A stretch of 64,000 nucleotides of DNA. It comes from an uncultured bacterium. GTDB lineage: Bacteria; Krumholzibacteriota; Krumholzibacteriia; JACNKJ01. Location: positions 1,565,881 to 1,629,880 of the forward strand of contig CAVOFT010000001.1 of the NCBI GenBank assembly GCA_963695095.1, read 5' to 3'. Below, one piece after another: positions 13,055 through 62,571 of the stretch. The notes under the pieces are model-generated. The model was given only the letters and a program-made list of their open reading frames with translations, was not told the DNA's origin and searched no databases. The stretch's first letter is position 1, and the number at the start of each line of letters is the position of its first letter. The translations under genes and the position numbers were made by a program.

Positions 13055-13067
13055 CGGGGCTCCCGGG

Positions 13068-19899: not shown

Positions 19900-19940
19900 G
19901 GCCTCCACGAGCGCAGCCAAGTTCCAGAAAGGAAGGATCC

Positions 19941-20552
19941 ATGGGCTACATCCCGGTTCCGATGGTGATCGAGCAGTCCGGTCGCGGCGAGCGTGCCTAC
20001 GACATTTACAGCCGCCTGCTCAAGGACCGCATCATCTTCATCGGCTCGCCGATCGACGACCACCTGGCGAACCTGGTCATCGCCCAGCTCCTGTTCCTCG
20101 ACGCCGAGGACCCGGAGCGGGACATCAACATGTACATCAACTCGCCCGGGGGCAGCGTTTCGGCCGGGATGGCCATCTACGACACCATGCAGTACATCAA
20201 GGCCGACGCGGCGACGATCTGCATGGGCCTGGCCGCCAGCATGGGGGCCTTCCTGCTCGCGGCCGGCGCGGCGGGCAAGCGCAGCGCGCTGCCCCACGGC
20301 CGCATCATGATCCACCAGCCCAGCGGCGGGACCCAGGGCCAGGCCAGCAATATCGAGATCTACACGCGGGAAATTCTGAAGACGCGGGACGAGATCAATG
20401 CCCTCTTCGCCCGCCACACCGGCCAGCCGGTGGAGCGCATCGCCAAGGACAGCGACCGCGATTATTTCATGTCTGCCGTCGAGGCCAGGGATTACGGCAT
20501 CGTCGACCGCGTGATCGAGAAGCAGGCCGGCGCGGAGCGCCAGAAGGACTAA
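19941..20552 (+). CDS. clpP: ATP-dependent Clp protease proteolytic subunit
   Basis: Highly conserved ClpP sequence ([17 protein letters not shown]...[11 protein letters not shown]). Confidence 0.95.
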
Positions 20553-20655
20553 GCTTCGGCTTGGCGACGCCGGGCCGATGGACTATCTTTAGGGTTCCCA
20601 GGTGCGGGCAGGCGAGTCCGAGGCTCTCGGCGTCCCCGCATCGGAAGGCACGGCG

Positions 20656-21882
20656 ATGATCAAGTGCTCCTTCTGCGGCCGCGGCCAGGACGAGGTGACC
20701 AAGCTGGTCAGCGGCCCCAACGTCTACATCTGCAACGAGTGCATCAAGCTCTGTAACGACATCCTCGAAGAGGAGATGGTGCGCCCGGCCATCTTCGAGG
20801 ATGGCGAATTCCCCAAGCCGACCGAGATTCGCGAGCAGCTCGACGACTACGTGATCGGCCAGGAGCGCGCCAAGATGACGCTGTCCGTGGCCGTCTACAA
20901 CCACTACAAGCGGATCCATCACCTGCGCGAAGCCGAGGAAGTCGAGCTCGACAAGAGCAATATCCTCCTGCTCGGGCCGACGGGCACGGGCAAGACCCTG
21001 CTCGCGCAGACCCTGGCGCACCTGCTGAAGGTGCCCTTCGCCATCGTCGACGCGACGACGCTCACCGAGGCCGGCTACGTGGGCGAGGACGTGGAGAACA
21101 TCCTCGTCCGCCTGCTGCAGGCCGCCGACTACAACGTCAGCTCCGCCGAGCGGGGCATCGTCTACATCGACGAGATCGACAAGATCGCTCGCAAGAGCGA
21201 CAACCCCTCGATCACGCGCGACGTTTCGGGCGAGGGCGTGCAGCAGGCCCTGCTCAAGATCCTCGAGGGCACGGTGGCCAACGTGCCGCCGCAGGGCGGC
21301 CGCAAGCATCCGCAGCAGAAGTACATCGAGGTGAACACGCGCAACATCCTGTTCATCTGCGGCGGCGCCTTCGACGGCCTGCACCAGGTGATCGCCAGTC
21401 GCGTCGGCAACAAGACGCTCGGTTTCGGCGCCGAGGTGCGCAGCAAGCAGGAGCGTGACCAGGAAGACCTCTTCCTCAAGGTGCTGCCGCAGGACCTCCT
21501 GCGCTTCGGCCTCATCCCCGAGCTGGTGGGCCGCCTGCCCGTGGTGGCGCCCCTGCACGGGCTCGACGAGGCGGCGCTGGTGGACATCCTCGTCAAGCCG
21601 AAGAACGCCCTGGTCAAGCAGTACCGCAAGCTCTTCGAGATGGAGGACATCCAGCTCGAGTTCGATCCGGGCGCCATCCGCGCCGTGGCCAGGCTGGCCC
21701 TCAAGCGCGCCACCGGCGCCCGCGGGCTGCGCTCGATCATGGAAGAGACCATGCTCGATCTCATGTACGAGCTGCCCAGCCGGCCCGGCGTGCAGCGCGT
21801 CGTCATCGCCGAGGACAGCGTCACCGAGGGCAAGGCGCCGAAGATCTTCTTCGGCGACGAACGCCAGATCCGGGAAGCCTAG
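20656..21882 (+). CDS. clpX: ATP-dependent Clp protease ATP-binding subunit
   Basis: Zinc-finger [30 protein letters not shown], Walker A GPTGTGKT. Confidence 0.95.
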
Positions 21883-21950
21883 CCGCTCGCCGGCAGGCCG
21901 GTGCCGGGGTGCCCGTCGGGCGCTCCGGCCTTCGCGCGAAAAGAGGCCCC

Positions 21951-24410
<2,460 letters not shown>

Positions 24411-24417
24411 GGCATTC

Positions 24418-25035
24418 GTGGGCCGCTTCGAGCAGCTGATCTACGAGACCAGCGCCCTCAGCCTGGGCGCCTGTCCGGGCGAGCCGTGGCCGGAGGTGGC
24501 CGTCTCCGGGCGCTCCAACGTGGGCAAGAGCAGCCTGCTCAACAAGCTCGCCGCTCAGAAGGCGCTGGCGCGCGTCAGCCAGCGGCCCGGCAAGACCCAG
24601 GCCCTGAACTTCTTCCGCCTGGGCGAGAGCCGCGCGCGCCTGGTCGATCTGCCCGGCTACGGCTATGCCGAAGTGCCGCGTGCGGTGCAGGACAAGTGGC
24701 GCCGCTTCATGAACGACTACCTGGAAGGGCGCGCCCAGCTCGCGGGGCTCGTGCAGCTCGTCGACTGCCGCCACGAGCCGACCGCGCTGGATCGCCAGAT
24801 GATCGACTGGCTGGCGGCCGGCGCGCGGCCCTTCCTGATCGTGCTCACCAAGGCGGACAAGCTGCCCCGCGGCCAGCGCCAGCAGGCTCTGGCTCGCGTG
24901 CGCGAGACCCTGGGGCTGGGGCCTGCGCAGCCCGTCCAGCTCTTCTCGGCGACGGACGGCACGGGGCGAGCGGAGCTGATCGCCTGGATCGACGGCCAGC
25001 TCGCGGCCTGGCGACCGGCGCCGGCGACAGGGTAG
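24418..25035 (+). CDS. engB: ribosome biogenesis GTP-binding protein YihA/EngB
   Basis: [13 protein letters not shown]-loop; follows lon as in many genomes. Confidence 0.85.
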
Positions 25036-46584: not shown

Positions 46585-47598
46585 ATGCGGTGGGGCGTCG
46601 TTCTTGCTAATCTGGGTTCCTGGTCCGGGAATTCTCGGGTCCTTGCCGCCACCGCCGGCCCGACTCGGTGGCTGGCCAACACGAAGGGGTTTCCCACGAG
46701 CGCTTCCGCCGGTCATGGCGCCGAACGCCTTTCCGAGCGCCGCTTCCGCCGGAGCATGCGCCTCCTCGGCGCGGCTTCGACCGCCGCGCTGCTCTGGCTC
46801 TGCTGGCGCGGCGCCGGGTTCTACCTGACCGCGGATGCCGAGCGTCCCCTGCACGCGGACTACGAGCGCTGGCGGCCGGCTGGAGACATCGGCCACGGCC
46901 TGGGCATCCTCGGCTCCCTGATGATGGTGATCCTGCTCGGCTACAGCCTGCGCAAGCGCTGGCGCCCCCTGCGCGCGGCGGGGCCCATCTCGCGCTGGCT
47001 CAGCGTGCACATCTACCTGGGCATTTTCGGCCCACTGCTCGTCGTGCTGCACAGCGCCTTCAAGGTGAACGGCCTCGTCTCGCTGAGCTTCTGGTCGATG
47101 GTGGCGGTGGCGGCCAGCGGCGTCCTGGGCCGCTATCTCTATCTCCAGATTCCGCGCAACCTGCAGGGCGACGCGCTGGACCTGGCGGCCCTCGAGACCG
47201 AGGACGCCGCGCTGAACGCGGCGCTGGCCGCCGACTTCGGCCTCGATGCGCAGACCCTGGCTGGACTGCAGCGTCTGGGGGGAACCGGGGAAGCTCGATC
47301 CCTGGGCGCGGCCTTGCTCGCCTCGCTCGCCAGCGACCTCACGCTGTCCCTGCGCCTGCGTCGCTTCCTCGCCCAGCGGACGGCCGGCTTTCGCCTACCC
47401 GCGGGCGAGCGGCGCCGGCTCCTGGCCCTGGCTCGCCGGCGGGCGCTCCTCGCGCGACGGCGCTTGCTGCTCGAGCGCCTGGAGCGGATCTTCCACTACT
47501 GGCATGTGATCCACAAACCTTTCGCCGTCGTGATGCTCGCCATCATGGTCGTGCACGTGGGAGTGACCGTCCTGTTGGGCTACCGATGGATCTTCTAA
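46585..47598 (+). CDS. membrane protein with His-bearing TM helices (cytochrome b-like)
   Basis: ~5 predicted helices with His pairs (…IGHGLGILG…, …SVHIYLGIFGPLLVVLHSAF…, …HYWHVIHKPFAVVMLAIMVVHVG…); stop overlaps the next start (TAATG); start codon uncertain. Confidence 0.5.
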   Translation: MRWGVVLANLGSWSGNSRVLAATAGPTRWLANTKGFPTSASAGHGAERLSERRFRRSMRLLGAASTAALLWLCWRGAGFYLTADAERPLHADYERWRPAGDIGHGLGILGSLMMVILLGYSLRKRWRPLRAAGPISRWLSVHIYLGIFGPLLVVLHSAFKVNGLVSLSFWSMVAVAASGVLGRYLYLQIPRNLQGDALDLAALETEDAALNAALAADFGLDAQTLAGLQRLGGTGEARSLGAALLASLASDLTLSLRLRRFLAQRTAGFRLPAGERRRLLALARRRALLARRRLLLERLERIFHYWHVIHKPFAVVMLAIMVVHVGVTVLLGYRWIF

Positions 47599-49277
47599 TG
47601 CGGGGCGCGCTGCGCTGCGCTCTGCTCTGCCTCGCCTGCGCCTGGGCGACGCCGGCCCCTGCCCAGCTCTCGCCGGGGCCGCTGTCCACGCCCCACGCCG
47701 AGCTCGAGGGCCTCAAGCGCTGCACGAGCTGCCACGAGATCGGCGAGGGCGTGCGCGCGGACAAGTGCTTCGCCTGTCATCGCCAGCTCGGCGCGCGGAT
47801 CGCCGCGGGCCAGGGCCTGCACGCCGGTGCCGACTACGCGAACTGCATCGGCTGTCACTCCGAGCACCACGGGCGCGACTATCCCCTCATCCGCTGGCCC
47901 GGCGGCGAAGCCAACTTCGACCACGGGGCCGCCGGCTACACGCTCGTCGGCGCCCATGCCCGCCTCGGCTGCCGCGACTGCCACCGCGAGGCGTTCGTCG
48001 CCGGCGCTGCCGCGCTGAGGGCCGAAGGCAGCGATCCCGCGCGCAGCTTTCTCGGACTCGGCAAGACCTGCCTGGACTGCCACCAGGATCCGCATCGCGG
48101 CGAGCTGGGCGCGCGCTGCCTCGCCTGCCACGGCGAGGAGGCCTGGCGGCCCGCCGCCGGCTTCGACCACGCGAGCACGCGCTATCCCCTGCGCGGCAAG
48201 CACGCAGATGTGGCTTGCGAGAAGTGCCATCCGCGCAGCGGCGGCGCCGCGACGGGGGACCTGCACATCGCCTTCAAGGGCGTCGCCTTTGCCGATTGCC
48301 GGGACTGCCACCAGGATCCGCACGCCGGCCGCTTCAAGGAAGCCTGCGCGAGCTGTCACAGCGAGAGCGGCTGGCGGCAGGGCGCGAGCGCGCGCTTCGA
48401 TCACGAGCGCACGCGCTATCCTCTGCGCGGCCGGCACGCCGCGCTGGACTGCGGGGCCTGCCACAAGCCGGGCGTCCCGCACGCGCCCCTGGCCCACGCG
48501 CGCTGTCTGGACTGTCACGCGGACAAGCATGAAGGGCAGTTCAAGCTGGCCGGCGCGCTCAGGGATTGCAGCGATTGTCACGACGCCGGCATCAAGGGCT
48601 TCGCGCCTGCGAAGTTCGGTCCGGCGCAGCACGCCGCGAGTCGCTACCCCCTGGCCGGAGCGCACCTGGCCGTGGCCTGCCGCGACTGCCATGCACCCAC
48701 GGCCGCCTTCGCCGCCGGGCGCTTCCGCTACGCCGACACCAGCTGCAGCAGCTGCCACGCGGATCCGCACGGCAAGGCGCTCGCGCTCGCGGGTGAGGCC
48801 CGCCGCTGCGAGGCCTGCCACCAGGTGGCGAGCTGGCGCGCTGTGGCCTGGGATCATGCGCAGACGGCCTTCCCCCTGGCCGAGCGCCACGCCGAGATCG
48901 CCTGCCGCGCTTGTCACGAGCCGATCGCCGGCCAGCCCGCCGGGACGCTGCGTTTCGCCGGCCTGGGCAAGGACTGCGCGACCTGCCATGCCGACGTCCA
49001 CCGGGGGCAGTTCGTGCTGGCCGGCGAGCAGGCGACGCGCTGCGAGCGCTGCCACGACAGCCGCGATTGGTTCGCCGCTCGCTTCGAGCACAACCGCGAT
49101 GCGCGCTTTGCCCTGGACGGCGCCCACGCGCCCCTGGCTTGCACCGCCTGCCACCAACCCCTCGCAGCTGCAGCGGGCCAGCCGGTCACGCTGCGCTACA
49201 AGCCGCTGCCGACGGACTGCAAGTCCTGTCATCCGGACCTCGTCCCGGCAGCGTCCACGCAAGGAGATCGGCCATGA
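47598..49277 (+). CDS. multiheme c-type cytochrome (~20 CxxCH)
   Basis: Signal peptide MRGALRCALLCLACAWATPAPA; ~20 CxxCH in repeated FDHxxTxYPLxGxHxxxxCxxCH modules. Confidence 0.85.
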   Translation: MRGALRCALLCLACAWATPAPAQLSPGPLSTPHAELEGLKRCTSCHEIGEGVRADKCFACHRQLGARIAAGQGLHAGADYANCIGCHSEHHGRDYPLIRWPGGEANFDHGAAGYTLVGAHARLGCRDCHREAFVAGAAALRAEGSDPARSFLGLGKTCLDCHQDPHRGELGARCLACHGEEAWRPAAGFDHASTRYPLRGKHADVACEKCHPRSGGAATGDLHIAFKGVAFADCRDCHQDPHAGRFKEACASCHSESGWRQGASARFDHERTRYPLRGRHAALDCGACHKPGVPHAPLAHARCLDCHADKHEGQFKLAGALRDCSDCHDAGIKGFAPAKFGPAQHAASRYPLAGAHLAVACRDCHAPTAAFAAGRFRYADTSCSSCHADPHGKALALAGEARRCEACHQVASWRAVAWDHAQTAFPLAERHAEIACRACHEPIAGQPAGTLRFAGLGKDCATCHADVHRGQFVLAGEQATRCERCHDSRDWFAARFEHNRDARFALDGAHAPLACTACHQPLAAAAGQPVTLRYKPLPTDCKSCHPDLVPAASTQGDRP

Positions 49278-50560
49278 TCGCCGGGACCGCTCGACTTCGC
49301 CGCGCTCTGCCCTGGCTGCTGCTGCCGCTGCCCTTCCTGATCCTGCTCGGGGCCGGCGATGATCAAGCTGGACAGAGCCCGCAGAGCCCGCAGAGCCCGC
49401 ACGGACCGCTTGCCATCGACTGCGCGCACTGCCATGCCACGGATAGCTGGCGCTTCGCCGCCGGCCGGGGCTTCGCGCACGACAGCACGGGCTATGTCCT
49501 CGAGGGCGCGCACGCCCAGGCCGATTGCGTCGGCTGTCACGGCGACCTGCGCTTCGGCCGCGTCGCCTCGGCCTGCGCGGATTGCCACCTCGACGTGCAC
49601 GCCGGCGAGCTGGGCTTCGACTGCGCCGGCTGTCACTCTCCGCACGATTGGCAGCCGACGGGCGGGACCCTGGCCCTGCACGCCGCGCGCGGCTTTCCCC
49701 TGCTCGGTGTCCACGCGCGGGTGGATTGCGAATCCTGCCACGTCGGCGCCAAGGGCGAGGAGTTCGCGGGCACGCCGAGCGACTGCTTCGCCTGCCACGC
49801 CGACGACTACGCGGCGACCTCGGCGCCCGACCACGGGGCGGCGGGCATGTCCACGGACTGCCTGAGCTGCCACTCCTCGGTGGCGCCTGGCTGGGGCGAC
49901 AGCAACTTCGATCACGATGCCTACTTCCCGCTGAGCGGCGCCCACGCTCGCCTGGACTGCCTGGCCTGTCACCAGGGCGGCTTCGGCGGCCAGCCGACCA
50001 GCTGCATCGGCTGCCACCAGGCCGACTACGACGGCGCGGACGATCCCGATCACCGGGCCGCCAACTTCGACACGGCCTGCCTCGTCTGTCACAGCACGCA
50101 GGCCTGGTCGCCGGCCACCTTCAATCACGCGGCGACGGCCTTTCCGCTCACGGGCGCGCACACGAGCGCGAGCTGCCTGAGCTGCCATGCCTCCGGCTAC
50201 GCCGGCACGCCGACGGACTGCTACGCCTGCCACCAGGGGGACTTCGAAAGCGCCGACGATCCGGATCACGCGGCCGCCGGCTTCAACACGCAGTGCGCAG
50301 TCTGCCACTCCACGGCGAACTGGTCGCCCTCCACCTGGGACCACGATCAGCTCTTCCCGATCTACTCGGGCCGCCATCGGGGCGAGTGGAACAGCTGCGC
50401 GGACTGCCACGTGCAGTCCACGAACTACGCCGAGTTCGAGTGCATCCTCTGCCACGAGCACAGCCAGAACGAAACCGACGGCCATCACGACAACGTGGAC
50501 GACTACGTCTACGAGAGCGCGGCCTGCTTCGACTGCCACCCGCGCGGCGAGGCCGATTGA
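49274..50560 (+). CDS. multiheme c-type cytochrome (~16 CxxCH)
   Basis: Signal peptide; ~16 CxxCH in the same module type; ATGA overlap with the previous gene. Confidence 0.85.
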   Translation: MIAGTARLRRALPWLLLPLPFLILLGAGDDQAGQSPQSPQSPHGPLAIDCAHCHATDSWRFAAGRGFAHDSTGYVLEGAHAQADCVGCHGDLRFGRVASACADCHLDVHAGELGFDCAGCHSPHDWQPTGGTLALHAARGFPLLGVHARVDCESCHVGAKGEEFAGTPSDCFACHADDYAATSAPDHGAAGMSTDCLSCHSSVAPGWGDSNFDHDAYFPLSGAHARLDCLACHQGGFGGQPTSCIGCHQADYDGADDPDHRAANFDTACLVCHSTQAWSPATFNHAATAFPLTGAHTSASCLSCHASGYAGTPTDCYACHQGDFESADDPDHAAAGFNTQCAVCHSTANWSPSTWDHDQLFPIYSGRHRGEWNSCADCHVQSTNYAEFECILCHEHSQNETDGHHDNVDDYVYESAACFDCHPRGEAD

Positions 50561-52113
50561 TGCACAGGTTCATTCCGGCCCTCGCATTCCTGCTCGCCGC
50601 GAGCGCCGCCGCGGCCTCGCCGGAGGCGCGCATCCGCTACCTCTCGGCCGAGCAGGTCTATCTGGATGCGGGCCTCGCCGCCGGCTTCGCCGAGGGGGAT
50701 ACCCTGGGCGTGCTGCGCGAAGGCAGGACCGTGGCCAGCTTGCTCGTCCTCCATGCCGCCGAGCACTCGGCAGCCTGCCGCATCCTGGCCAGCCGGGTGG
50801 CGCTCGCCGCCGGCGACCGCGTGCGCGGAGTGCAGCGCAGCGCGCCGCCGGCCGTCGCCGTGCCTCCGGCAGCGCCGCGGCGGAGCCGGGACCCCGCGGC
50901 GCCCGCGCCCGGTAGCCCGGCGTCCCGCGCCTCCAGCGGCCGCTTCAGCGGCAGCCTGCGCTTCGCCTGGGACGCCTACCGGGACGACGCCGCCGCCGCG
51001 CGCGACTACGACCGGCTCAGCGCGACACTCGGCCTGCGCGGTGAGCAGCTGGCCGGCCGCGACCTGCGTCTCGATCTGCGCCTGCGCCAGCGCACGGTGA
51101 AGCGCACAGGCGCAGCCGACGAGCAGCGCCTGCGCCTCTACGCCGCGGCGATCGAGTACGGCGCAAGCAGGGGCCGCTGGCACCTGGCCGCGGGCCGCCT
51201 CGGTGGGGGCCGGCAATCGGGAGCCGGCGCTCTGGACGGCCTCCTCGTCGGCCGCCGTCTGGGCGATGCCGAACTCGGCGGCTACTTCGGCGCCATGCCC
51301 GACTGGAATGAGGAGGGCCTGCGCGATCGGGGCACGCGCGGGGGTCTCTACCTGCGCCAGCGCCTGGCATCCGCGCAGTGGTCCCTCGAAGCGGTGGGCG
51401 AGCGCCTCGCCGGCGAGAGCAGCCGCGACTACCTCCTGGCGGGCAGTTCCTGGCAGCGCGGCGCCCTCAGCCTGCGCGAACGCCTCGAACTGGATTGGAA
51501 CCGCGGTTGGCGGGGGGACCGGGCGGCGGACGCCCTTCAGGTCAGCGCGCTGAATGTCGGCGCCGACTGGCGGCCGCACGCGGACTTCGGCCTCGGCCTG
51601 CGTGTGGACAGCCGCGCCACGCCCCTGGACGGCGAGCAGCGCACGCTCCCCGATAGCCTCTTCCAGGAAGCGCGCTCGCAGGGCAGCAGCCTGAGCCTCT
51701 CCTGGCGTCCCCTGCCCGGCGCGCGCCTGGGCGCGCGCGCCGGTTGGCGCAGCCGCGCCGGGTCTGCGCGCGGGACGGCCTCATGGGGTCTGGACCTGGG
51801 CATCGACGCGCCGGCCCTGCCTCACCTGCACCTGGATCTCCGCCTGAGCGGCTTCGACGGCGAAGCGGCCCGAGGCCTCTCCCCGAGCGCGGACCTGCGC
51901 CGGCGCTTCCGCGCGGGCCACGAGCTGGGACTGGCCGCGGGCGCCTACCTCTACACGCCGCGCGACCTCGAGGCTCGCCACAATCGCTGGCTGCGCGCCG
52001 AGGGTCGCCTGGCGCTAGCCGGCCGCGCCTGGCTGGGGCTCTCCATCGAAACGGATGGCGGCGACGATCTCAGCGGCCGGCGCTTCGGCGCCGAACTGGG
52101 ACGGCGCTTCTAG
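50560..52113 (+). CDS. secreted Arg/Gly-rich protein, possible outer-membrane beta-barrel
   Basis: Signal peptide MHRFIPALAFLLAASAAAA; alternating hydrophobic pattern; C-terminal …GRRF; start overlaps the previous stop. Confidence 0.5.
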   Translation: MHRFIPALAFLLAASAAAASPEARIRYLSAEQVYLDAGLAAGFAEGDTLGVLREGRTVASLLVLHAAEHSAACRILASRVALAAGDRVRGVQRSAPPAVAVPPAAPRRSRDPAAPAPGSPASRASSGRFSGSLRFAWDAYRDDAAAARDYDRLSATLGLRGEQLAGRDLRLDLRLRQRTVKRTGAADEQRLRLYAAAIEYGASRGRWHLAAGRLGGGRQSGAGALDGLLVGRRLGDAELGGYFGAMPDWNEEGLRDRGTRGGLYLRQRLASAQWSLEAVGERLAGESSRDYLLAGSSWQRGALSLRERLELDWNRGWRGDRAADALQVSALNVGADWRPHADFGLGLRVDSRATPLDGEQRTLPDSLFQEARSQGSSLSLSWRPLPGARLGARAGWRSRAGSARGTASWGLDLGIDAPALPHLHLDLRLSGFDGEAARGLSPSADLRRRFRAGHELGLAAGAYLYTPRDLEARHNRWLRAEGRLALAGRAWLGLSIETDGGDDLSGRRFGAELGRRF

Positions 52114-52114
52114 C

Positions 52115-53405
52115 ATGGAGACCCTTGCCATCTGGGGCGGCGCCCTCTTGCTCGTGCTGGCCGTCGTGCTGCCCTACGCGCGCAGCTTCCGCCGCCGCGA
52201 GCGCGAGACGGCCGCCCGGCGCGCGGAAGCGGTAGCGCTGGGGGCCGATCGCGCCATCGCCCAGCACCCCCAGGTCGACGCGCTGCGCTGCATCGGCTGC
52301 GGCGCCTGTGTCGCCGCCTGTCCCGAGGGGGAGGTGCTGGGTCTGGTGGCGGGCAAGGCCGTCATCATCAACGGGCTCAAGTGCGTGGGCCACGGCCTCT
52401 GCGCGGTGGCCTGTCCGGTCGAGGGTATCAGCGTCGGGCTGGGCGACCTCGGCGCGCGCGACGACATCCCCCAGCACGATGCGCATCTGGAGACGAACCT
52501 GCCGGGGGTCTACGTGGCCGGCGAGTTGAGCGGCTATGCGCTGATCCGCAACGCGGTGGCCCAGGGCGTCCAGGCCGTCGAGCACATGGCGAGCCAGCCG
52601 CGGGCGGCGGCGGATCGCCTCGACCTGCTCATCGTGGGCGCCGGGCCGGCGGGCCTGGCCGCGGCCCTCGCCGCCAAGGAGGCGGGCCTGCGCAGCCTGG
52701 TGCTGGAGCGCGAGGCCGCGGGCGGGACAATCTTGCAGTACCCGCGCAAGAAGCTCGTGCTGACCCAGCCGGTGGCGATCCCCCTCTACGGCGTTCTCGA
52801 CCGCGAGGAGTACACCAAGGAGGAGCTGCTGGAGATCTGGCGCGGCATCGTCGAGCGCTTCGCGCTTGCCCATCGAGATCGGCGCCAGCGTGGACGGCAT
52901 GCAGGCGCTCGCCGGGGGCGGTTATCGCCTCACGGCCGCCGGGCGGCACTGGGATGCTCAGCGCGTGCTGCTCGCCCTGGGCCGCCGCGGCACGCCGCGC
53001 AAGCTGGGCGTGCCCGGCGAGGACAGCGAGAAGGTCTTCTACAAGCTGCTCGATGCCGCCTCCTTCGCCGGCGAGCGCGTGCTCGTCGTGGGCGGTGGCG
53101 ACAGCGCCGTCGAGGCGGCAATGGGCCTGGCCCTGCAGGAGCACACGGCCGTCACCCTCGCCTACCGCAAGGAGAAGCTGTTCCGCATCAAGCGGCGCAA
53201 CGAAGAGCGCTTCGCGCCGCTCCTGCGGGAGGGCCGCCTGCGCGCGGCCTTCAATGCGGATGTGCTCGCCATCGAGCCTGAGGCCGTACGCTTGCGCGTC
53301 GCGGGCAGGGAGGAGACGCTCGCCAACGATCGCGTCTTCGTTCTCGCGGGCGGCGAGCCGCCCTTCCCCCTGCTCAAGGCGATGGGCTTGCGCTTCGGCC
53401 GCTAG
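52115..53405 (+). CDS. membrane-anchored ferredoxin-domain/FAD-dependent pyridine nucleotide-disulfide-type oxidoreductase (one +1 frame change)
   Basis: N-terminal TM helix, CIGCGACVAACP and CVGHGLCAVACP cluster motifs, LLIVGAGPAG and VVGGGDSAVE dinucleotide motifs; C-terminal part in ORF 52866..53405; shift near 52860. Confidence 0.7.
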
Positions 53406-56266: not shown

Positions 56267-56805
56267 GGCAACACTCCTCGCTGGATCAGGATCTCCCGCA
56301 GGCGGGCGCGGCAGCGGTACAGCCGGCGGTAGAGCAGCTCGGCAGCCAGGCCCTCCGAGGCTGCCAGTGTCGCCGGCGAGGCGCCGGCCAGCAGGCGGCG
56401 CAGGTAGCGGCTGCAATCGGGCGCGCTCGGCGCCAGCGCGTCCAGCGCAGCCGCCAGGGCATGGGAGCGCTCCGCGCGTTCGAGCGCTTCGAGCGGACTG
56501 GGCTCCGCGCTGCCGGCGACCTGCGCAGCGCTCAGCGACTCGTGGCGACGGTGCCGCTGGCGCTGGTAGTGGTTGCCGATCGTGTTGCGGAGCACCTGAA
56601 AGCACCAGGCCAGGGGGGGCAGGCCCTCGGGCATTCGCGCTTCGCCGGCAGCTCCCGCCACGATGCCCCGCTCGTAGACCACGCGCAACGCCTCCTGTAC
56701 CGTATCCTCGACCGCTTCGGCGGCCACGCGGCGGCTGGCGATCTCCATGAAGCGCGCCCGCAGGGCCGTCAACCAGCGCTCACGCTCGGCAGACGGCCCG
56801 CTCAT
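56263..56805 (-). CDS. ECF-type RNA polymerase sigma factor
   Basis: Sigma-70 region 2/4-like sequence; start overlaps the CHAT gene stop. Confidence 0.7.
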   Translation of the reverse strand: MSGPSAERERWLTALRARFMEIASRRVAAEAVEDTVQEALRVVYERGIVAGAAGEARMPEGLPPLAWCFQVLRNTIGNHYQRQRHRRHESLSAAQVAGSAEPSPLEALERAERSHALAAALDALAPSAPDCSRYLRRLLAGASPATLAASEGLAAELLYRRLYRCRARLREILIQRGVLP

Positions 56806-59246
56806 TTGCCGAGGCCCCGCGATCTCCCCCGCCGTCGGCGCCGCGCGAGGAAAGCGCCCGGCAGGAGCAGGGCCGCCGAGGCGGCCAGGATCCAGGCCGC
56901 ACGCGGCGAGCGCTGGGCGGGGGCGGCGCCGGCGAGCGCCGCCACGGGATGCGCGCCAAGGCCGGTGAGGATGAAGGCTGCCCGATCCCGCAGGGGATAG
57001 CCCTCCCTCGCCATGGCGAGGCGAGCGAGGCCCAGCGCATGGTCGCGCTCCTCGCCGCGGCGCAGGGCCGCGTAGAAATGCACCATGAAGCGGCGCGCCG
57101 CCCGATCCTCGACATCCCAGAGGCTGGAGACCACGCTGCGGGCACCGGCGAGGAGGAAGGAGCGCGGCAGGCCGAAGCTGCCCTCGCCGGGCAGGACGAG
57201 ACCCAGGCTGCTGCGGCAGGCACTGAGGGTGACCAGATCGGCACTGAGGCGCAGGCTCTCCACCTCGGCGGCTCGGAGGAATTCGCTGCCGCCGTCGATG
57301 CCCGCGAGCAGCAGGGCGGCGTCGGCTCCGTTGAGCGGATTGATCAGCGCGTGGGTGGCGAAGTGAAGCACGGCACAGCCGGCGGCAGCGGCGCTCAGGT
57401 CCGCCTTGCGGGCGGCACGGCCTTCCAGTCGCCGACTGCCGGCCACGGCGATCTCGCGAATCTCCGCTCGCGCTTCGGGCAGGGGAACGCCCGCCAGGCC
57501 GCGACTCGGGTCCGCCCGCTCGCCGGCGAGCGCAGCGGGGGCCGGCGGGGGATCGGCCAGGGCCAGCATGCCCGCCCCGGCAGCGGGTCGCTCGGCGACC
57601 AGGACCAGGGCGCTGGCGCTGGGCAGGTAGCTCAGGTCGAAGCGCTCGCCGAGACTGCCTCCGGAGATGGGCAGGGCCTCGAAGGGGAAGCCCGCCAGGG
57701 CATCCGGCGGGATCAGGCAGAGCCGCGTCGCATCGGGCGGCAGCAGTGGCAGCAGGGGGGCGAGGAGTTGCTCGGCCAGGCGTGCCAGGGGCGGCGCGCA
57801 GCGCGAATCGGAGTTCCCATCCGCCATCAGGCTGAGGGCGGCGCGCACATCGTCGTCGAGGCTGGGCTCCAGCGCCAGGTCGAGCATCTGGAGGCCGCGG
57901 CCATCGACGAGGAATACGAGAAGGTGGTCATCGATGTAGCTATCGTATTGAATAAGACATGCATTGGATCTATCAAGTTCTGCCTGAACAGCGCGTAGCG
58001 CTGCCGGCTGCCCGCTGCCCAGGCGCTCGCGAAAGAGCGGCGCCCGCCCGCGCTCCGAGGTGGCCCAGCCGGCGGCGAGATCGCCGGTCCGAAGCTGGCA
58101 GCGCGCGAGCGCGGAGTAGTAGGCCGCGCCTTCGCGCTGAAGGCCGGCCCGGCTGTCGGGGGCCTCCTGCCTGTAGCGCTGGCTCTCGAAGGCGGTCACG
58201 GTCTCGCCGAGTACGGCCTCGGCCTCGCCGAGCCGGCCGAGAGCGAAGAGGGCCTCGCCCTCCAGCGCCCGCACCGAATTGAGCAGGGGGCCGTGCTCGA
58301 GCGCGGCGATCTCGGGCTTCAGGTCGCGCGCAGCGGCCAGGCAATCCGCGGCGCGGCCGGCGTCCAGCAGGAGACCGAGGCGGGCCTCGCGGCAGCGCGC
58401 CGCATAGTAGCGTTCGCCGGCGGCGTCCAGGGTGGCGATGCCGGTCTCGAGCCGAGGCAGCGCTTCGTCGCCGCGCCCCAGGGCGTCGAGGAGAGCGGCG
58501 CGACGCACGATGGCGAGGCCCAGGGCGTCCGTCCGTCCGGCCACTCTGGCCAGGGCGAGCGCCGAGTCCGCCCAGGCCAGCGCCTCCACCTGCCGTCCGA
58601 GCTGGGCCATCAGCAGGGTGCGGCGCATCAGCGTCGACAGCTGACCGCCCACGTTGCCCGCCAGGCGATCCCAGCGCTCGGCCTGCAGTGTTGCGTCCAG
58701 GGCCTCGCCCACGCGGCCCAGTTCCTGGTAGCTGTTGGCGATGTTGCCCCAGGTCACGCCCAGGCCGAAGCTGTCACCCAGGGCCTCGCGCAAGGGTATC
58801 ATCTCGATCCAGCTGGCCACGGCCTCTTCGCTGCGGCCGGCGGCCGCCCGCCCCACGGCGATCGCATTGAGCAGGCTGACTTCCGTCCTGGGCTCTCCGT
58901 GCCGGCGCAGCATGGCCAGGCCCCGCTGCCAGGTCGTCTCGGCCTCCTTCAGATGTCCGAAGCGGAAGGCGTGAATGCCCGCCCATTCGTAGCCGCGGCC
59001 CGCCGGCCCCAGGAGGCCGGCGGCTTCCAGGCTGTCCGCCAGGGCGAGCAGGGCGCCGCAATGGGCGAGCCGCTCGCTCTCGCTGCTGGGTTTGCTCGGA
59101 TAGAGGGCGGCGGCCCGCGCCATCAGCCACGTGGAGTCGGCGGCCGCCGGCGCCGCCTGAGGCCGCTCGGGAACAGCCGTGCTCAGCACTGCGCCCAGGA
59201 GCAGGGGAAGCAGGGCCAAGCGTGGCTGTGGTCCTTGGCGTCGCAT
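56802..59246 (-). CDS. secreted TPR-like/CHAT-domain (caspase-like) protein with C-terminal membrane anchor
   Basis: In-frame ATG 59246 gives signal peptide MRRQGPQPRLALLPLLLGAVLS; TPR-like repeats; CHAT motifs …VLHFATHAL… and …LVTLSACRSS…; C-terminal hydrophobic stretch plus RRRRRGRSR. Confidence 0.75.
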   Translation of the reverse strand: MRRQGPQPRLALLPLLLGAVLSTAVPERPQAAPAAADSTWLMARAAALYPSKPSSESERLAHCGALLALADSLEAAGLLGPAGRGYEWAGIHAFRFGHLKEAETTWQRGLAMLRRHGEPRTEVSLLNAIAVGRAAAGRSEEAVASWIEMIPLREALGDSFGLGVTWGNIANSYQELGRVGEALDATLQAERWDRLAGNVGGQLSTLMRRTLLMAQLGRQVEALAWADSALALARVAGRTDALGLAIVRRAALLDALGRGDEALPRLETGIATLDAAGERYYAARCREARLGLLLDAGRAADCLAAARDLKPEIAALEHGPLLNSVRALEGEALFALGRLGEAEAVLGETVTAFESQRYRQEAPDSRAGLQREGAAYYSALARCQLRTGDLAAGWATSERGRAPLFRERLGSGQPAALRAVQAELDRSNACLIQYDSYIDDHLLVFLVDGRGLQMLDLALEPSLDDDVRAALSLMADGNSDSRCAPPLARLAEQLLAPLLPLLPPDATRLCLIPPDALAGFPFEALPISGGSLGERFDLSYLPSASALVLVAERPAAGAGMLALADPPPAPAALAGERADPSRGLAGVPLPEARAEIREIAVAGSRRLEGRAARKADLSAAAAGCAVLHFATHALINPLNGADAALLLAGIDGGSEFLRAAEVESLRLSADLVTLSACRSSLGLVLPGEGSFGLPRSFLLAGARSVVSSLWDVEDRAARRFMVHFYAALRRGEERDHALGLARLAMAREGYPLRDRAAFILTGLGAHPVAALAGAAPAQRSPRAAWILAASAALLLPGAFLARRRRRGRSRGLGK

Positions 59247-59383
59247 GTGGGCCGATTCCAGTATATTGCCTATCGACAATGGTTTGTAGCCATCGATCCT
59301 AGTCGATCTGTCGCCATGGCGCCAGCTATTTTGGATCGCGGTCGGTCCCTCGCCGCCAGCGCTACCTTTTTCTCGCCTCGCGC

Positions 59384-59412
59384 TTGACATGTATACGGAC
59401 GTATAGTAGTTT
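59384..59412 (+). promoter_or_regulatory. dinB promoter candidate (TTGACA-17-TAGTTT) with palindrome TATACG-N2-CGTATA in the spacer (candidate SOS operator)
   Basis: Read directly ~60 nt upstream of the dinB start. Confidence 0.3.
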
Positions 59413-59464
59413 CTCCGTCGATGCAGGGCGCTGCGGCCTGGCCTGCGTCGGAGGTTGCTCGCCC

Positions 59465-60652
59465 GTGTTCAGGTCCTCCCCCGCCCTGGCTCACGTCGAC
59501 ATGGACGCTTTCTACGCCTCCGTGGAACAGCGGGATTTTCCCGAGTTGCGGGGGCGGCCCGTCGTGGTGGGCGGCAGCGATCCCACGCGGCGGGGCGTGG
59601 TCTCGGCAGCCAGCTACGAGGCGCGGCGCTTCGGCATCCACAGCGCGATGCCCCTGCGCACGGCCTTCCGGCTCTGCCCCCAGGCCTGCTTCGTGGCCGG
59701 TCGCATGGAGGTCTACGTGGCCGAGAGCAAGCGCATCATGGCCATCCTGCGCGAGCATTCCCCGCGCGTGCAGCCGCTCAGCCTGGACGAGGCCTTCCTG
59801 GACCTCAGCGGCACCGAGCTGCTCTTCGGACCGCCGGAGGGCACCCTGCGCCGGATCAAGGCGCGGATCCGGGAGGAGACGGGCCTGGTCTGCTCGGCCG
59901 GCCTGGCGCCGGTGAAGTTCGTGGCGAAGATCGCCTCGGATCTGGAGAAGCCCGACGGCTTCACCGTGGTGCCGCCGGACGGCGTGCTGGACTTCCTGCG
60001 CCCCCTGCCCGTGGGCCGGCTCTGGGGCGTGGGGCCCAGGACCCTGGCCCGGCTCCAGGAGCTGGGCATCGCCAGCATCGGCGATCTGGACCGCCTGGGC
60101 GAGGCCGAACTGGAGCGCCTCTTCGGCCGCTGGGGCACGCGGCTGGCCCGCCTGGCGCGGGGCGAGGATCCCCGCGGGGTGGAGGCCGAGCGGCCTGACG
60201 AGAAGTCCGTCGGCCACGAGCACACCTTCGCCGAGGATCAGGACGAGGCGCGGGTGCTGGAGCGCACCCTGCTGGAGCTGGCCGAGAAGGTGGCCCGTCG
60301 CCTGCGCCGGCAGGGCGTGGCCGGCCGCACGCTGACGCTCAAGCTGCGCACGGCCTCCTTCCGCACGCTGAGCCGATCCGTCACCGGCAGCGAGTACCTG
60401 GACCAGGGCCTGCTCATCTTCCAGACCGCCCGGCGCCTGATGAACGCGGTGGACCGCCGGGGAGAGAAGGTGCGGCTGCTGGGCATCTCGCTGCGCAATC
60501 TGATCCCCCGGGACGCCGTGCCCGGCAGCCTCTTCGCCGGCGAAGCGCCGGAGCGCGAGGCGAAGCTGGACGGCGCCATCGACGAACTGGGGGAGCGTTT
60601 TGGGCGCGGGGCCGTTCAGCGGGCCCGCCTGCTGGGAAGGAGTCGCTCATGA
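59465..60652 (+). CDS. dinB: DNA polymerase IV (Y-family)
   Basis: Catalytic motifs HVDMDAFYASVEQ and SLDEAFLD; start GTG 59465 or ATG 59501. Confidence 0.85.
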   Translation: MFRSSPALAHVDMDAFYASVEQRDFPELRGRPVVVGGSDPTRRGVVSAASYEARRFGIHSAMPLRTAFRLCPQACFVAGRMEVYVAESKRIMAILREHSPRVQPLSLDEAFLDLSGTELLFGPPEGTLRRIKARIREETGLVCSAGLAPVKFVAKIASDLEKPDGFTVVPPDGVLDFLRPLPVGRLWGVGPRTLARLQELGIASIGDLDRLGEAELERLFGRWGTRLARLARGEDPRGVEAERPDEKSVGHEHTFAEDQDEARVLERTLLELAEKVARRLRRQGVAGRTLTLKLRTASFRTLSRSVTGSEYLDQGLLIFQTARRLMNAVDRRGEKVRLLGISLRNLIPRDAVPGSLFAGEAPEREAKLDGAIDELGERFGRGAVQRARLLGRSRS

Positions 60653-61290
60653 TCATGCGCGAGGGCGGGCAAATCGACCTCTTTGTCGCGGGGGCCGCGG
60701 CGCCGCCGCGTCGCCCCCGAGCCGACCTGGACCTGGAGGCGGCCCTGGCCAATGCCCGCCGCTTCCTGGCCACAGGCAGTCACCCCGGGGACTCCCGGGC
60801 CAATCAGGCCCATCTTCCCGGTCTCCCGGGAGGCCCCGAGATCTTCGCCCTCTGCCCGGGCTGTTCGGTGCATCCGGACGGCGGCATCTTCCCGGCGGCC
60901 GAACTGGCCCGGGTGGAGGGCTGCCCCGCCGGCCCGCGCCTCGCGGCGCAGCTGGCGGCGGCCAGCGCCTTGACCGGGGGGGAGGGGCGCCAGTGGGCCG
61001 AAAGGGAGGGTTCGGCTCGCAGGGTTCCGGCAGAGCGAAACTCGCTCTCCCGCTCCTTCTCCCCGGGCATCATCGGCACCCGCCCCTGGGGGCGGGTGCC
61101 TGTCGACTTCTCCTTGACGGCCTTGGGGGGCCTGTGTTCGGGTGCCCTCGAGGCCTTGGCCGCCCCCGGCCGGCACATCCTCGCAGCGGGGAGCCGTCAA
61201 CTCCGGCGCCGCTGGTACTTTCACAGGAGGCGGGCGATATGTCGCCAACGGCTCTCACGGATCGCCAGCGATCCGTCCTGGATTTCCTGA
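60649..61290 (+). CDS. hypothetical protein between dinB and lexA (may be non-coding)
   Basis: ORF track only; overlaps dinB stop and lexA start; Gly/Pro/Ala-rich, no recognisable motif. Confidence 0.3.
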   Translation: MIMREGGQIDLFVAGAAAPPRRPRADLDLEAALANARRFLATGSHPGDSRANQAHLPGLPGGPEIFALCPGCSVHPDGGIFPAAELARVEGCPAGPRLAAQLAAASALTGGEGRQWAEREGSARRVPAERNSLSRSFSPGIIGTRPWGRVPVDFSLTALGGLCSGALEALAAPGRHILAAGSRQLRRRWYFHRRRAICRQRLSRIASDPSWIS

Positions 61291-61871
61291 GGGATTTTCT
61301 CAAGGATAACGGCTATCCACCTACAATCAGGGAGATTGCCGCACACTTCGATCTGCGATCGCCGCGGGGGGTCCAGGATCACCTCAAGGCGCTGGAGCGC
61401 AAGGGCTACATCCGCCGGGCTCCGGAGCGCTCCCGCGGCATCGAGCTGCTCGAATTGGGGGGGCGACGCTCTCCGGCAGCGAGCAATGTCCTGCGCCTGC
61501 CCCTGATCGGTCAGGTGGCGGCCGGCGTGCCCGTGCTCTCCGAGGAGAACATCGAGGAGTGGATCGAGGTCGATGCCTCCTTCGCTGCCCGGGAAGGCAA
61601 CTTCCTGCTCAAGGTGGTGGGGGACTCGATGGTCGAGGCGCACATCCTCGACGGCGACACCATCGTGGTCAGCCCCCAGGAGACGGCGCGCGATGGGGAG
61701 ATCGTCGTTGCGCTGGTGGATGACGAGGCCACGGTGAAGACCTTCTACAAGGAGCCCGGGGGAATCCGGCTGCAGCCGGAGAACGCGAATCTGAAACCGA
61801 TCTGGGTGCCGGCCGGCAGCGCCGAGGTGCGCATCATCGGCAAGGTCGTGGCCGTGATGCGCGTGCTCTGA
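61239..61871 (+). CDS. lexA: LexA repressor
   Basis: N-terminal winged helix, cleavage-site region VAAGVPV, S24 peptidase GDSM…K dyad; AGGAGG RBS 8 nt before ATG. Confidence 0.9.
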   Translation: MSPTALTDRQRSVLDFLRDFLKDNGYPPTIREIAAHFDLRSPRGVQDHLKALERKGYIRRAPERSRGIELLELGGRRSPAASNVLRLPLIGQVAAGVPVLSEENIEEWIEVDASFAAREGNFLLKVVGDSMVEAHILDGDTIVVSPQETARDGEIVVALVDDEATVKTFYKEPGGIRLQPENANLKPIWVPAGSAEVRIIGKVVAVMRVL

Positions 61872-61926
61872 ACGGGACCGCTAGCAGCGCCCGCCCCGCC
61901 CCCGGGGGCGAGGCCTCGCCTGGGTG

Positions 61927-62571
61927 CTAGCCGGTGAGGGCCTTTTCCACGGCGGCGACCAGTTCCTCGTCCAGGGGCCCGGTCCGCGAGCCGAAGCGGG
62001 CGATCAAGCGGCCTTCACGGTCCACGAGGAACTTGTTGAAGTTCCAGCTCACCTCGCCCGCCAGGGCCGGATCGCCGCCGCCGGCGGTGAGGTAATGATA
62101 CAGGGGATGCTGCGCGTCGCCCTTCACATGGATCTTGGCGAAGAGCGGAAAGCCCACGCCGTAGTTCACGTTGCAGAACTCGAGGATGTCGGCGTTGCTG
62201 CCGGGCTCCTGCCCCATGAAGTCGTTGGCGGGAAAGCCGAGCACTTCGAGCCCCTGGGCGCTGAAGCGCTCGTAGAGGGCCTGCAGGCCCGCGTACTGGG
62301 GTGTGAAGCCGCACTTGCTGGCCACGTTGACGAGCAGAAGCACCTGGCCGCGATAGGCCTCGAGGCTGGTGGGCTGGCCCTCGATCGTTTGCAGCGGGAT
62401 GGCGAAGATCGAAGTGGGCATGTCGGGCTCCGGCTCGGGGCTGCGCTTGCCGGCGCCGCCGATGAGCGGGAAGAGGGCAAGCAAGGCGATGAGAGCGCGG
62501 CGGCGTGGGATCAAGCTCGAGCTCCCGTCTGAGGGGAAGCGCCGCCGGAGTGCAGCGCGGCTGTCTAGCAT
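61927..62571 (-). CDS. glutathione peroxidase (Cys-type), with N-terminal signal-like extension
   Basis: NVASKCGFT active site and GPx fold; N-terminal RRRALIALLALFPLIGGAG suggests export; start uncertain. Confidence 0.85.
   Translation of the reverse strand: MLDSRAALRRRFPSDGSSSLIPRRRALIALLALFPLIGGAGKRSPEPEPDMPTSIFAIPLQTIEGQPTSLEAYRGQVLLLVNVASKCGFTPQYAGLQALYERFSAQGLEVLGFPANDFMGQEPGSNADILEFCNVNYGVGFPLFAKIHVKGDAQHPLYHYLTAGGGDPALAGEVSWNFNKFLVDREGRLIARFGSRTGPLDEELVAAVEKALTG

Follow-up and report, generated by a model that had tools for sequence, protein, structure and literature searches.

Which operator controls the SOS response in the Krumholzibacteriota, and which genes answer to it, is the question raised by a three-gene cassette, dinB-orfX-lexA, in an uncultured bacterium of this lineage (GenBank assembly GCA_963695095.1, contig CAVOFT010000001.1, positions 1,565,881 to 1,629,880 of the forward strand). 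We refer to this whole stretch of 64,000 nucleotides (nt) as the window; coordinates are positions in the window unless a related metagenome locus (L number) is named. The literature that we searched contains no description of a TATAC-based LexA motif or of LexA in Krumholzibacteriota. Our comparative sequence analysis favors, with a probability of roughly 0.7, an SOS operon of three genes that is autoregulated by LexA through a TATAC-N4-GTATA operator, with OrfX acting as a partner of the beta sliding clamp and with RNA-level control embedded in orfX.

The identities of the two outer genes are clear from their products. dinB (59465-60652, + strand, 395 amino acids [aa]) encodes DNA polymerase IV (Pol IV): its product scores 393.1 bits against NCBIfam model NF002751 (cut-off, 371), matches the Pfam families IMS, IMS_HHH, and IMS_C, and retains the active-site motifs DMDAFYASVE and SLDEAFLD. 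An earlier note on this DNA had likewise recognized a catalytically intact Pol IV, albeit with a start at 59384. This TTG is simply the earliest in the open frame and is part of the -35 hexamer; translation really begins at the GTG at 59465, with GGAGG (59450-59454) ahead of it, the arrangement being the same in orthologues. The G+C content at third codon positions (GC3) of dinB is ~0.97. lexA (61239-61871, + strand, ATG start, 210 aa) matches TIGR00498 (231.7 bits; cut-off, 110.95) and the Pfam families LexA_DNA_bind (PF01726, 95.9 bits) and Peptidase_S24 (PF00717, 113.6 bits). Across nine orthologues, neither the LexA cleavage site (Ala95-Gly96, in V-A-A95-G96) nor the dyad of Ser130 (G-D-S130-M) and Lys167 (V-K167-T) varies; SPRGVQDHL is the sequence of the recognition helix. 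Between the two lies the orphan gene orfX (60649-61290, + strand, 213 aa), whose ATG overlaps the dinB stop codon and whose ribosome-binding site (RBS), GGAAGGAG, is at 60635-60642.

A conserved palindrome in the cassette promoter

Upstream of dinB, positions 59384-59412 read TTGACA-tg-TATACggacGTATA-g-TAGTTT. This sequence comprises a -35 hexamer (TTGACA, 59384-59389, + strand), a candidate LexA operator in the spacer (TATAC-N4-GTATA, here TATACGGACGTATA, 59392-59405, + strand; a 14-bp dyad of 5-4-5 geometry that abuts the -10), and, 17 nt after the -35, a probable -10 element of the form TAnnnT (TAGTTT, 59407-59412, + strand). When nine distinct orthologous promoters were aligned, only TTGACA, TATAC, GT..A, and the RBS GGAGG proved invariant; the flanks of the -35 hexamer have diverged, and both flanks of the dyad vary, as do its central four bases. 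The TA of the -10 is kept at the same spacing in all orthologues, which otherwise present TAGCCT, TATTGT, TAGAGT, TAGTCT, and TATACC. The box is also present in the promoter of a held-out locus, L096. Thus, the earlier note was correct in placing a palindrome between the -35 and -10 elements, but its definition of the motif as TATACG-N2-CGTATA does not hold: the central four bases are variable, so the dyad is 5-4-5 and the inner G and C of the window are incidental.

The palindrome is unique within the window. For the pattern as first defined, with up to two mismatches allowed, 0.05 chance matches are expected and 5 of 100 shuffled sequences gave at least one; the relaxed form, TATAC-N4-GTATA, has one perfect match in the window. 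It is not the only palindrome upstream of dinB, as had been claimed, since CTGTCGCCATGGCGCCAG (59308-59325) and others exist, but none of these is conserved in the orthologous promoters. CTGTCGCCATGGCGCCAG is an 18-bp near-palindrome situated ~60 nt 5' of the -35 hexamer in a divergent intergenic region; it is absent from the orthologous loci and may belong to the promoter of the neighboring CHAT gene (see below). In one sub-clade, comprising three orthologues (L004, 8705-8734; L008, 8727-8756; L014, 6005-6034), the box is doubled: two tandem copies are separated by 2 bp (16 bp from center to center) and have the relaxed half-sites GATAC, GTACA, GTGTA, and GGATA. In the LexA proteins of the same three loci, VNAG replaces VAAG at the cleavage site.

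The box recurs at other lexA genes and tracks the LexA recognition helix

A position-weight matrix was built from the orthologous promoter sites and scanned against 205 kb plus 681 kb of LexA-related metagenome loci (~890 kb). The 205 kb contained no other promoter site, and across the ~890 kb the box was found only at cassette promoters, at the promoters of stand-alone lexA genes of two distant lineages (L027 and L046), and as one non-promoter match inside a gene. In L027, whose LexA is 51% identical to that of the window, a perfect 16-bp box (GTATACacatGTATAC) lies 29 nt before the ATG of the stand-alone lexA, its left half-site forming the -10; in L046 (LexA 45% identical), the stand-alone lexA promoter reads TTGACA-N5-TATACatatGTATAC. 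Other lexA genes (42 to 52% identity) are preceded by related dyads, namely, TGAAC-, AGAAC-, CGAAC-, TGTAC-, and TGCAC-N4 forms and a hybrid TATAC-N4-GTTCA, which together form a graded NNxAC-N4-GTxNN series. The hybrid occurs 5' of lexA in high-GC lineages (L059, at -56 and -40; L050, L064, and L082, at -29 to -31), the two copies in L059 being identical and 16 bp apart, and these hybrid boxes appear to be intermediate, in evolutionary terms, between half-sites of the GAAC and TATAC types.

A recognition helix starting with S/Y-P-R-G was found only in the three lineages that have full TATAC-GTATA boxes, whereas the helices of the others start with S-T-N-G, S-T-S-V, or similar sequences. The related and hybrid boxes make TATAC-N4-GTATA one member of a Cheo-box continuum, and the correlation with the recognition helix, together with the location of the box in the promoter of the lexA operon, makes LexA its likely binder. 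From these comparisons, we class TATAC-N4-GTATA as a variant of the Cheo-box type that is very probably the operator of LexA. The proposal that the palindrome is the SOS box of this lineage is accordingly supported by phylogenetic footprinting, the stand-alone lexA promoters, the graded boxes, and the helix correlation, with the motif corrected to 5-4-5.

The remaining matrix matches were set aside. A box match at L005 12552 lies inside a gene of an AT-rich island, the weak matches TATGCATGTGTATA (L060-L075) and L060 5317 lie inside coding sequence, and the weak matches TGTACATTTGTATC (L039, L040, and L055) fall in AT-rich sequence ~3.7 kb 5' of lexA. Separately, the stand-alone lexA of L027 (9980-12235) is followed by a gene with radical-SAM and helix-hairpin-helix domains, and such a pair of genes has been reported to be under LexA control in Balneolaeota (PMC7739468).

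orfX is conserved as a reading frame

At 70 to 74% G+C, the length of an open frame is uninformative, and we therefore tested the conservation of phase. Three of the six frames are open across the spacer, including an extension of the lexA frame (60600-61871, + strand) and a frame on the opposite strand (60616-61248, - strand). Nine anchors spanning from the orfX ATG to the lexA ATG hold their phase modulo 3 in 13 loci, even though the segments between them occur in 2 to 9 lengths each, which requires that length changed at least 33 times, always by a multiple of three. The orfX RBS and the ATG overlapping the dinB stop codon are conserved (in L012, the ATG abuts it). G+C contents at the three codon positions of orfX are 0.71, 0.64, and 0.84, the last equal to the GC3 of lexA. 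The ratio of nonsynonymous to synonymous substitution rates (dN/dS) is uneven along the gene: 0.26 at an N-terminal QxxLF motif, 0.23 in a Cys/His core, and 0.23 at RRLRRxWYFH, as opposed to ~1.15 over two segments that encode the RNA structures described below (hairpin H1 and a three-way junction). The phase survives all of these length changes, and three peptide islands are under purifying selection, which excludes a frame artefact. Of the two options that the earlier note had offered for this gene, a new SOS-associated factor or an artefact, only the former thus survives, and the two measures that it had suggested, conservation and codon bias, agree (phase conserved; GC3, 0.84). Neither competing frame behaves as a real gene: both were rejected on their GC3 patterns and because they have no Pfam match, and the lexA-frame extension is, in addition, not conserved in L005 and L006.

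A search for OrfX homologues returned 15 proteins (48 to 92% identity), and a profile search of 1.84 billion cluster representatives gave only 12 matches; the window's own OrfX has no record in the gene index. The protein, whose gene the earlier note had called unannotatable, matches nothing in Pfam, NCBIfam, PADLOC, or the PDB. All LexA-related loci outside the cassette lineage lack orfX, and LexA identity is at least 78% inside this lineage versus at most 52% outside. Judged by frame, selection, and distribution, orfX is truly coding and is a lineage-restricted orphan.

OrfX carries a motif resembling a beta-clamp-binding peptide

Beta-clamp-binding motifs reportedly (Dalrymple 2001; Wijffels 2004) take a pentapeptide form, QL[SD]LF, or a hexapeptide form, QLxLx[LF]. 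Residues 8 to 12 of OrfX, QIDLF (60670-60684, + strand), resemble such a motif. Q8 and F12 are invariant in the main alignment, D10 and L11 are at least 90% conserved, and most members have Q-x-[DSTH]-L-F, encoded by codons that turn over synonymously (CAA/CAG, CTC/CTT/CTG, and TTT/TTC). In the most divergent members (P0021, P0023, and P0024), the hexapeptide form QxxLxF is found. The motif sits within residues 1 to 27, for which the AlphaFold2 predicted local distance difference test (pLDDT) score is <50; Hda, too, has its beta-clamp-binding motif at the N terminus. The C-terminal clamp motif of DinB itself is weakened, reading PGSLF in the window and PPSLF, MPSLF, PLSLF, PATLF, or PPGLF in orthologues, with QPSLF only in L005. 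Because OrfX has a clamp-type motif and the Gln has mostly been lost from that of DinB, we propose that OrfX may be a clamp-binding partner or regulator of Pol IV.

Two further islands of constraint follow. In the Cys/His core, ALCPGCxVHPxGG...EGCP (60838-60939, + strand), C69, C72, H75, and C92 are invariant and variation is mostly at third codon positions; it is the best-modelled part of the protein (pLDDT, 76 to 89) and possibly a zinc knuckle. The Arg-rich C-terminal helix, RQLRRRWYFHRRRAICRQRLSRI (61192-61260, + strand), belongs to a predicted helix of residues 174 to 207 (pLDDT, 80 to 91). Ahead of the lexA RBS, it evolves at the low dN/dS given above and its Arg codons swap synonymously, whereas its distal part is also under constraint from the lexA RBS and coding sequence. 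The model overall is helical and disordered. Several known identities were tried and rejected. OrfX is not an ImuB-C/DUF6504 protein (hhalign probability of 0.2% versus the DUF6504-like protein of L044), being helical and disordered, not beta-rich. Nor is it UmuD or YolD, since OrfX and three divergent homologues have no Peptidase_S24 or YolD match (Pfam, E ≤0.1); the sole Pfam match among these four is a weak, sub-threshold one of P0023 to PqqF_C_3 (E, 0.057). PADLOC and the PDB gave no support for a defence protein or for any solved fold.

A clamp-type motif would equally suit an SOS checkpoint effector or toxin that blocks the clamp and thereby inhibits replication or division, in the manner of SocB or SulA/YneA/SidA, instead of assisting Pol IV. 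SOS operons often include a checkpoint gene, and OrfX is small, disordered, and fast-evolving, as such a protein might be. The evidence accommodates this reading as well as that of an accessory factor. We nevertheless regard the checkpoint alternative as rather unlikely: a transmembrane segment of the YneA/SidA type was judged absent from OrfX (no transmembrane prediction having been run), no Pfam family, SulA included, matches OrfX, and the close coupling of its translation to that of dinB points to synthesis in a 1:1 ratio with Pol IV.

Covarying RNA structures lie within orfX

Several nucleotide runs in orfX are invariant even at synonymous sites and contain rare codons. Folding of all loci revealed a three-way junction of helices P1, P2, and P3 (60974-61066, 93 nt, + strand) with an invariant P2 loop, AAAGGGAGGGU. 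In a gap-free alignment, 13 of its 32 pairs show compensatory changes, and the dN/dS of the encoded peptide is 1.16. Overall, 90.4% of cells pair, compared with 42 to 58% when the partners were slid by 1 to 3 columns, and none of 500 shuffles reached the observed value. RNAalifold recovered the junction independently from the whole spacer. Covariance model R1 matched each cassette locus once, always on the + strand, and had no other match in 886 kb; it found the held-out loci L096 and L097, which had not been used in building it, at E values of ~1e-11; Rfam 15 had no match at E ≤1 to either strand of 59100-62000. The hairpin H1 (60786-60838, + strand; RNAalifold), with the invariant loop CCCAUCUUCC, pairs in 92.8% of cells, with compensatory changes in 5 of 13 pairs and a dN/dS of 1.14 for the encoded peptide, and was likewise recovered in L096 and L097. 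For a 291-nt segment of the window, folding is more favorable than that of shuffled sequence by 3.7 standard deviations. RNA rather than DNA structure is indicated by conserved G-U pairs and by the asymmetry between strands, and because H1 and the junction sit exactly in the neutrally evolving protein segments, orfX is, as the alignments read, dual-coding, with peptide islands separated by linkers that are constrained at the RNA level.

A third structure is of a different kind. Helix H2 (60847-60921, + strand; RNAalifold) consists of an 18-bp outer helix and an inner stem, is 97% paired, and joins the ALCPGC codons to the LAR(V/A)EGC codons, with T/C and A/G co-varying 6:6 at synonymous sites. 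As a universal element it fails in the held-out L096 and L097, and it is probably secondary to the peptide encoded there. The invariant GGGAGGG loop of the junction resembles an RBS, and CU-rich strands could pair with RBSs; the computed energies of loop-loop and loop-to-RBS duplexes, whose partners are invariant, are at most suggestive. A long-range helix between the RBS regions of orfX and lexA was compatible with the alignment (95.7% paired) but was discarded, as it shows no covariation. Inspection of the sequence revealed no internal start codon after the GGGAGGG loop and no frameshift site. Two more runs are conserved at the nucleotide level: TTCTCCTTGACGG (61107-61122), which is -35-like and complementary to an RBS, and CTGGTACTTTCAC (61209-61223), located just 5' of the lexA RBS; either may owe its conservation to the peptide, to a promoter, or to RNA pairing.

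These structures could also mean that the dinB-lexA spacer acts mainly as a leader that is both structured and translated, in which ribosome transit unfolds the RNA and exposes or modulates the lexA RBS while the OrfX peptide itself is functionless. The dN/dS of ~1.15 and the strong covariation over H1 and the junction would fit such a leader, as would the invariance of the rare CAT and CTT codons and of the loop sequences, the high whole-gene dN/dS of orfX, and the fact that OrfX has no fold or family match. However, three peptide islands have dN/dS values of 0.23 to 0.26 with synonymous turnover, two of them outside any supported helix; QxxLF is swapped for the other known clamp form, QxxLxF, rather than lost; and L096 and L097 retain the Cys/His peptide despite their broken H2. 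A functionless OrfX therefore appears unlikely.

lexA is probably transcribed from the dinB promoter

As first noted, the three genes lie on one strand and overlap; the overlaps measure 4 nt (ATGA, dinB/orfX) and 52 nt (orfX/lexA). The order dinB-orfX-lexA is found in every orfX-encoding contig examined, as well as in loci L017 to L021, which were recovered via LexA alone. The 52-nt overlap is kept wherever junctions were examined (64 nt in L006), and the distinct loci with this synteny and these overlaps number more than 15, among them L096, the member that has diverged most. The lexA RBS, AGGAGG (61225-61230, + strand), is located inside orfX, 8 nt before the lexA ATG, and is conserved in the alignment. 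A consensus scan detected no sigma-70-like promoter or terminator within the cassette, and the matrix scan found no LexA box within orfX 5' of lexA, which bears out the earlier observation that no similar site directly precedes that gene. The conserved overlaps, together with the lack of an internal promoter, a terminator, or a LexA box of its own, support the view, also put forward before, that lexA is co-transcribed from the dinB promoter. A hairpin 3' of lexA was considered as a terminator and rejected, as it folds no better than shuffled sequence (z = 0.07). On the short contig L013 (576-1738), dinB occupies two separate reading-frame segments next to intact orfX and lexA; either it is a pseudogene or the contig was misassembled.

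An additional lexA promoter might lie inside orfX, for instance at the conserved TTGACG (61113-61118), in which case co-transcription would be partial and lexA would have a transcript of its own, whose 5' region the RNA structures would mark. The nucleotide-level conservation of TTCTCCTTGACGG and the unusual length of the dinB-lexA spacer (590 nt) are in keeping with such a promoter, and promoter rules for this phylum are not established. On the other hand, no TAnnnT lies 16 to 18 nt 3' of TTGACG, no sigma-70-like match and no LexA box occur there, and the TTGACG run also encodes a conserved OrfX peptide, FSLT, so that an internal promoter seems to us improbable.

That the palindrome serves a non-LexA regulator or is mere promoter architecture, with LexA acting elsewhere or not at all, we consider very improbable, for although the link between LexA and the operator comes from sequence, with one operon per genome examined, and although the right half-site overlaps a -10-like sequence (GTATAGTA) whose promoter function could explain part of the conservation, the box goes with lexA rather than dinB in L027 and L046 (where its placement with respect to the -35 and -10 elements differs), shares its 5-4-5 geometry with Cheo boxes and grades into them via hybrid sites, correlates with the change in the recognition helix, and belongs to an operon in which LexA is the only DNA-binding regulator encoded.

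Proposed mechanism

In the model that we favor, an SOS operon autoregulated by LexA, the single promoter TTGACA-N17-TAGTTT would drive dinB-orfX-lexA, and a LexA dimer bound to TATAC-N4-GTATA would fill the spacer and touch the -10, thereby excluding RNA polymerase. Upon DNA damage, RecA on single-stranded DNA would trigger self-cleavage of LexA, a step expected from the presence of the Ala-Gly site and the Ser/Lys dyad, and the operon would be derepressed. Pol IV and OrfX would then be produced by coupled translation at the ATGA overlap, and new LexA, made from its own strong RBS inside orfX, would re-close the operon by negative autoregulation. OrfX, small and mostly disordered, would most likely bind the beta sliding clamp by means of the QxxLF or QxxLxF motif near its N terminus, and its Cys/His core and Arg-rich helix may then serve Pol IV as partner or regulator where a fork has stalled. 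H1 and the three-way junction probably control RNA processing, RNA stability, or lexA translation.

A bolder version of this model, in which the dual-coding orfX specifies both a new beta-clamp-binding Pol IV partner or regulator made 1:1 with the polymerase and a new class of cis-acting structured RNA that sets the rate of LexA re-synthesis, is tentative, and we hold it to be somewhat unlikely as a whole. If it were true, H1 and the GGGAGGG-loop junction would time SOS shut-off through the rate of LexA re-synthesis.

Several observations weigh against the favored model. The -10 is a weak match, and the promoter was missed by the consensus scan; lexA could also have an internal promoter at the conserved TTGACG (61113-61118). 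No repair gene (recA, uvrA, ruvAB, or imuAB) is present in the window or in the flanks of the fetched loci, and Pfam annotation, which covered most open reading frames (ORFs) of the window, gave only housekeeping, redox, and surface-protein genes. Whole-gene dN/dS is 0.52 to 0.89 for orfX versus 0.18 to 0.46 for dinB and 0.02 to 0.26 for lexA. The AlphaFold2 model of OrfX is poor (pLDDT, 60) with no fold match, one member (L020/P0022) has no QxxLF motif, and H2 is largely broken in the held-out L096 and L097, where the Cys/His peptide is kept.

Neighborhood of the cassette

In this window only, a large protein with TPR and CHAT (caspase-like) domains is encoded between a porin-like gene and dinB (56805-59246, - strand). 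In related loci, a conserved hypothetical or porin-like gene and a rhodanese gene lie directly 5' of dinB. Genes neighboring the cassette encode Por_Secre_tail domains, which are sorting domains for type IX secretion. At 46585-53405, the window has a cluster for multihaem cytochrome c7/c3 together with a partial ORF for a pyridine-nucleotide-disulphide oxidoreductase; this region is syntenic with L010 and L011, where it lies 5' of the cassette. The window also contains the conserved tig-clpP-clpX-lon-engB cluster (18514-25032), near which the matrix scan found no LexA-type box. In L005, whose genome is 62 to 70% GC, an AT-rich island (11900-13650) follows lexA directly and is the source of the chance box-like match. 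It encodes a protein with an N terminus that is TIR-like by eye and a Fis-type helix-turn-helix (HTH) at the C terminus, plus a membrane protein, and may be an inserted defence or mobile element.

Comparison with known SOS systems

Known operators of the Cheo-box type include the Gram-positive CGAAC-N4-GTTCG, the cyanobacterial RGTAC-N3-DGTWCB, and the Fibrobacter TGCNC-N4-GTGCA. The box described here resembles them in being a 14-bp dyad of 5-4-5 geometry with an NNxAC-N4-GTxNN core in the promoter of the lexA transcription unit, and it is linked to them by the hybrid TATAC-N4-GTTCA and by TGCAC-N4-GTGCA 5' of related lexA genes; it differs in its half-site (TATAC, not GAAC, GTAC, or GCAC) and in the helix that accompanies it (S/Y-P-R-G, not S-T-N-G or S-T-S-V). 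Further LexA motifs are catalogued elsewhere (PMC8565304). Within the FCB superphylum, the Balneolaeota LexA motif is a 20-bp direct repeat, TTACACATATTTTWTACATA (PMC7739468), and Bacteroidetes use CI-like repressors with GGA-N5-TCC or CTAA-N5-TTAG (PMC8565304). Those systems share with the present one the superphylum and a core regulon of LexA with dinB or umuDC, but here a canonical LexA is paired with a short palindrome.

The operon itself recalls the lexA-imuB-C-polY type of Geobacter (PMC6511836), in which one damage-induced transcript carries lexA along with genes for a Y-family polymerase and a small accessory protein; the same is predicted here. Unlike in that type, the polymerase comes first and lexA last, and OrfX is unrelated to ImuB-C/DUF6504. 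Two of our related loci do match the Geobacter type (PMC6511836): L037 (9995-12642) and L044 (2551-4989) have lexA, a gene for an 87-aa beta-rich DUF6504-like protein, and a Y-family polymerase gene, in this order, with a TGAAC-N4-GTT(T/C)A box.

Small proteins encoded beside a Y-family polymerase and co-regulated by LexA are likewise known, namely, UmuD (with UmuC) and YolD/YqjX (with YqjW/UvrX) (PMC6511836). OrfX is similarly small and encoded beside a Y-family polymerase under predicted LexA control, but it has neither an S24 nor a YolD domain, and its partner polymerase is of the DinB type. A DinB-type polymerase normally works alone. The N-terminal arm of UmuD also contacts the beta clamp. 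In common with clamp-binding proteins, OrfX has Q-x-[DST]-L-F or Q-x-x-L-x-F at a disordered terminus; in contrast to them, it has I, T, A, S, or Q instead of L at the second motif position, and the remainder of the protein resembles no known clamp partner.

This is the first sequence-level account of an SOS system in Krumholzibacteriota-type bacteria. It ties the TATAC half-site to a change from S-T-N-G to S-P-R-G in the recognition helix, which informs the drift of LexA specificity between lineages; it turns an unannotated ORF into a real, lineage-restricted SOS gene and candidate player in translesion synthesis; and it places an RNA supported by covariation in SOS coding sequence just 5' of lexA, a candidate for post-transcriptional control of LexA recovery. 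Compared with the systems above, neither the logic of the operon nor the class of its operator is new; what is new is the half-site, its link to the recognition helix, and an orphan gene that has a clamp-type motif and contains a structured RNA.

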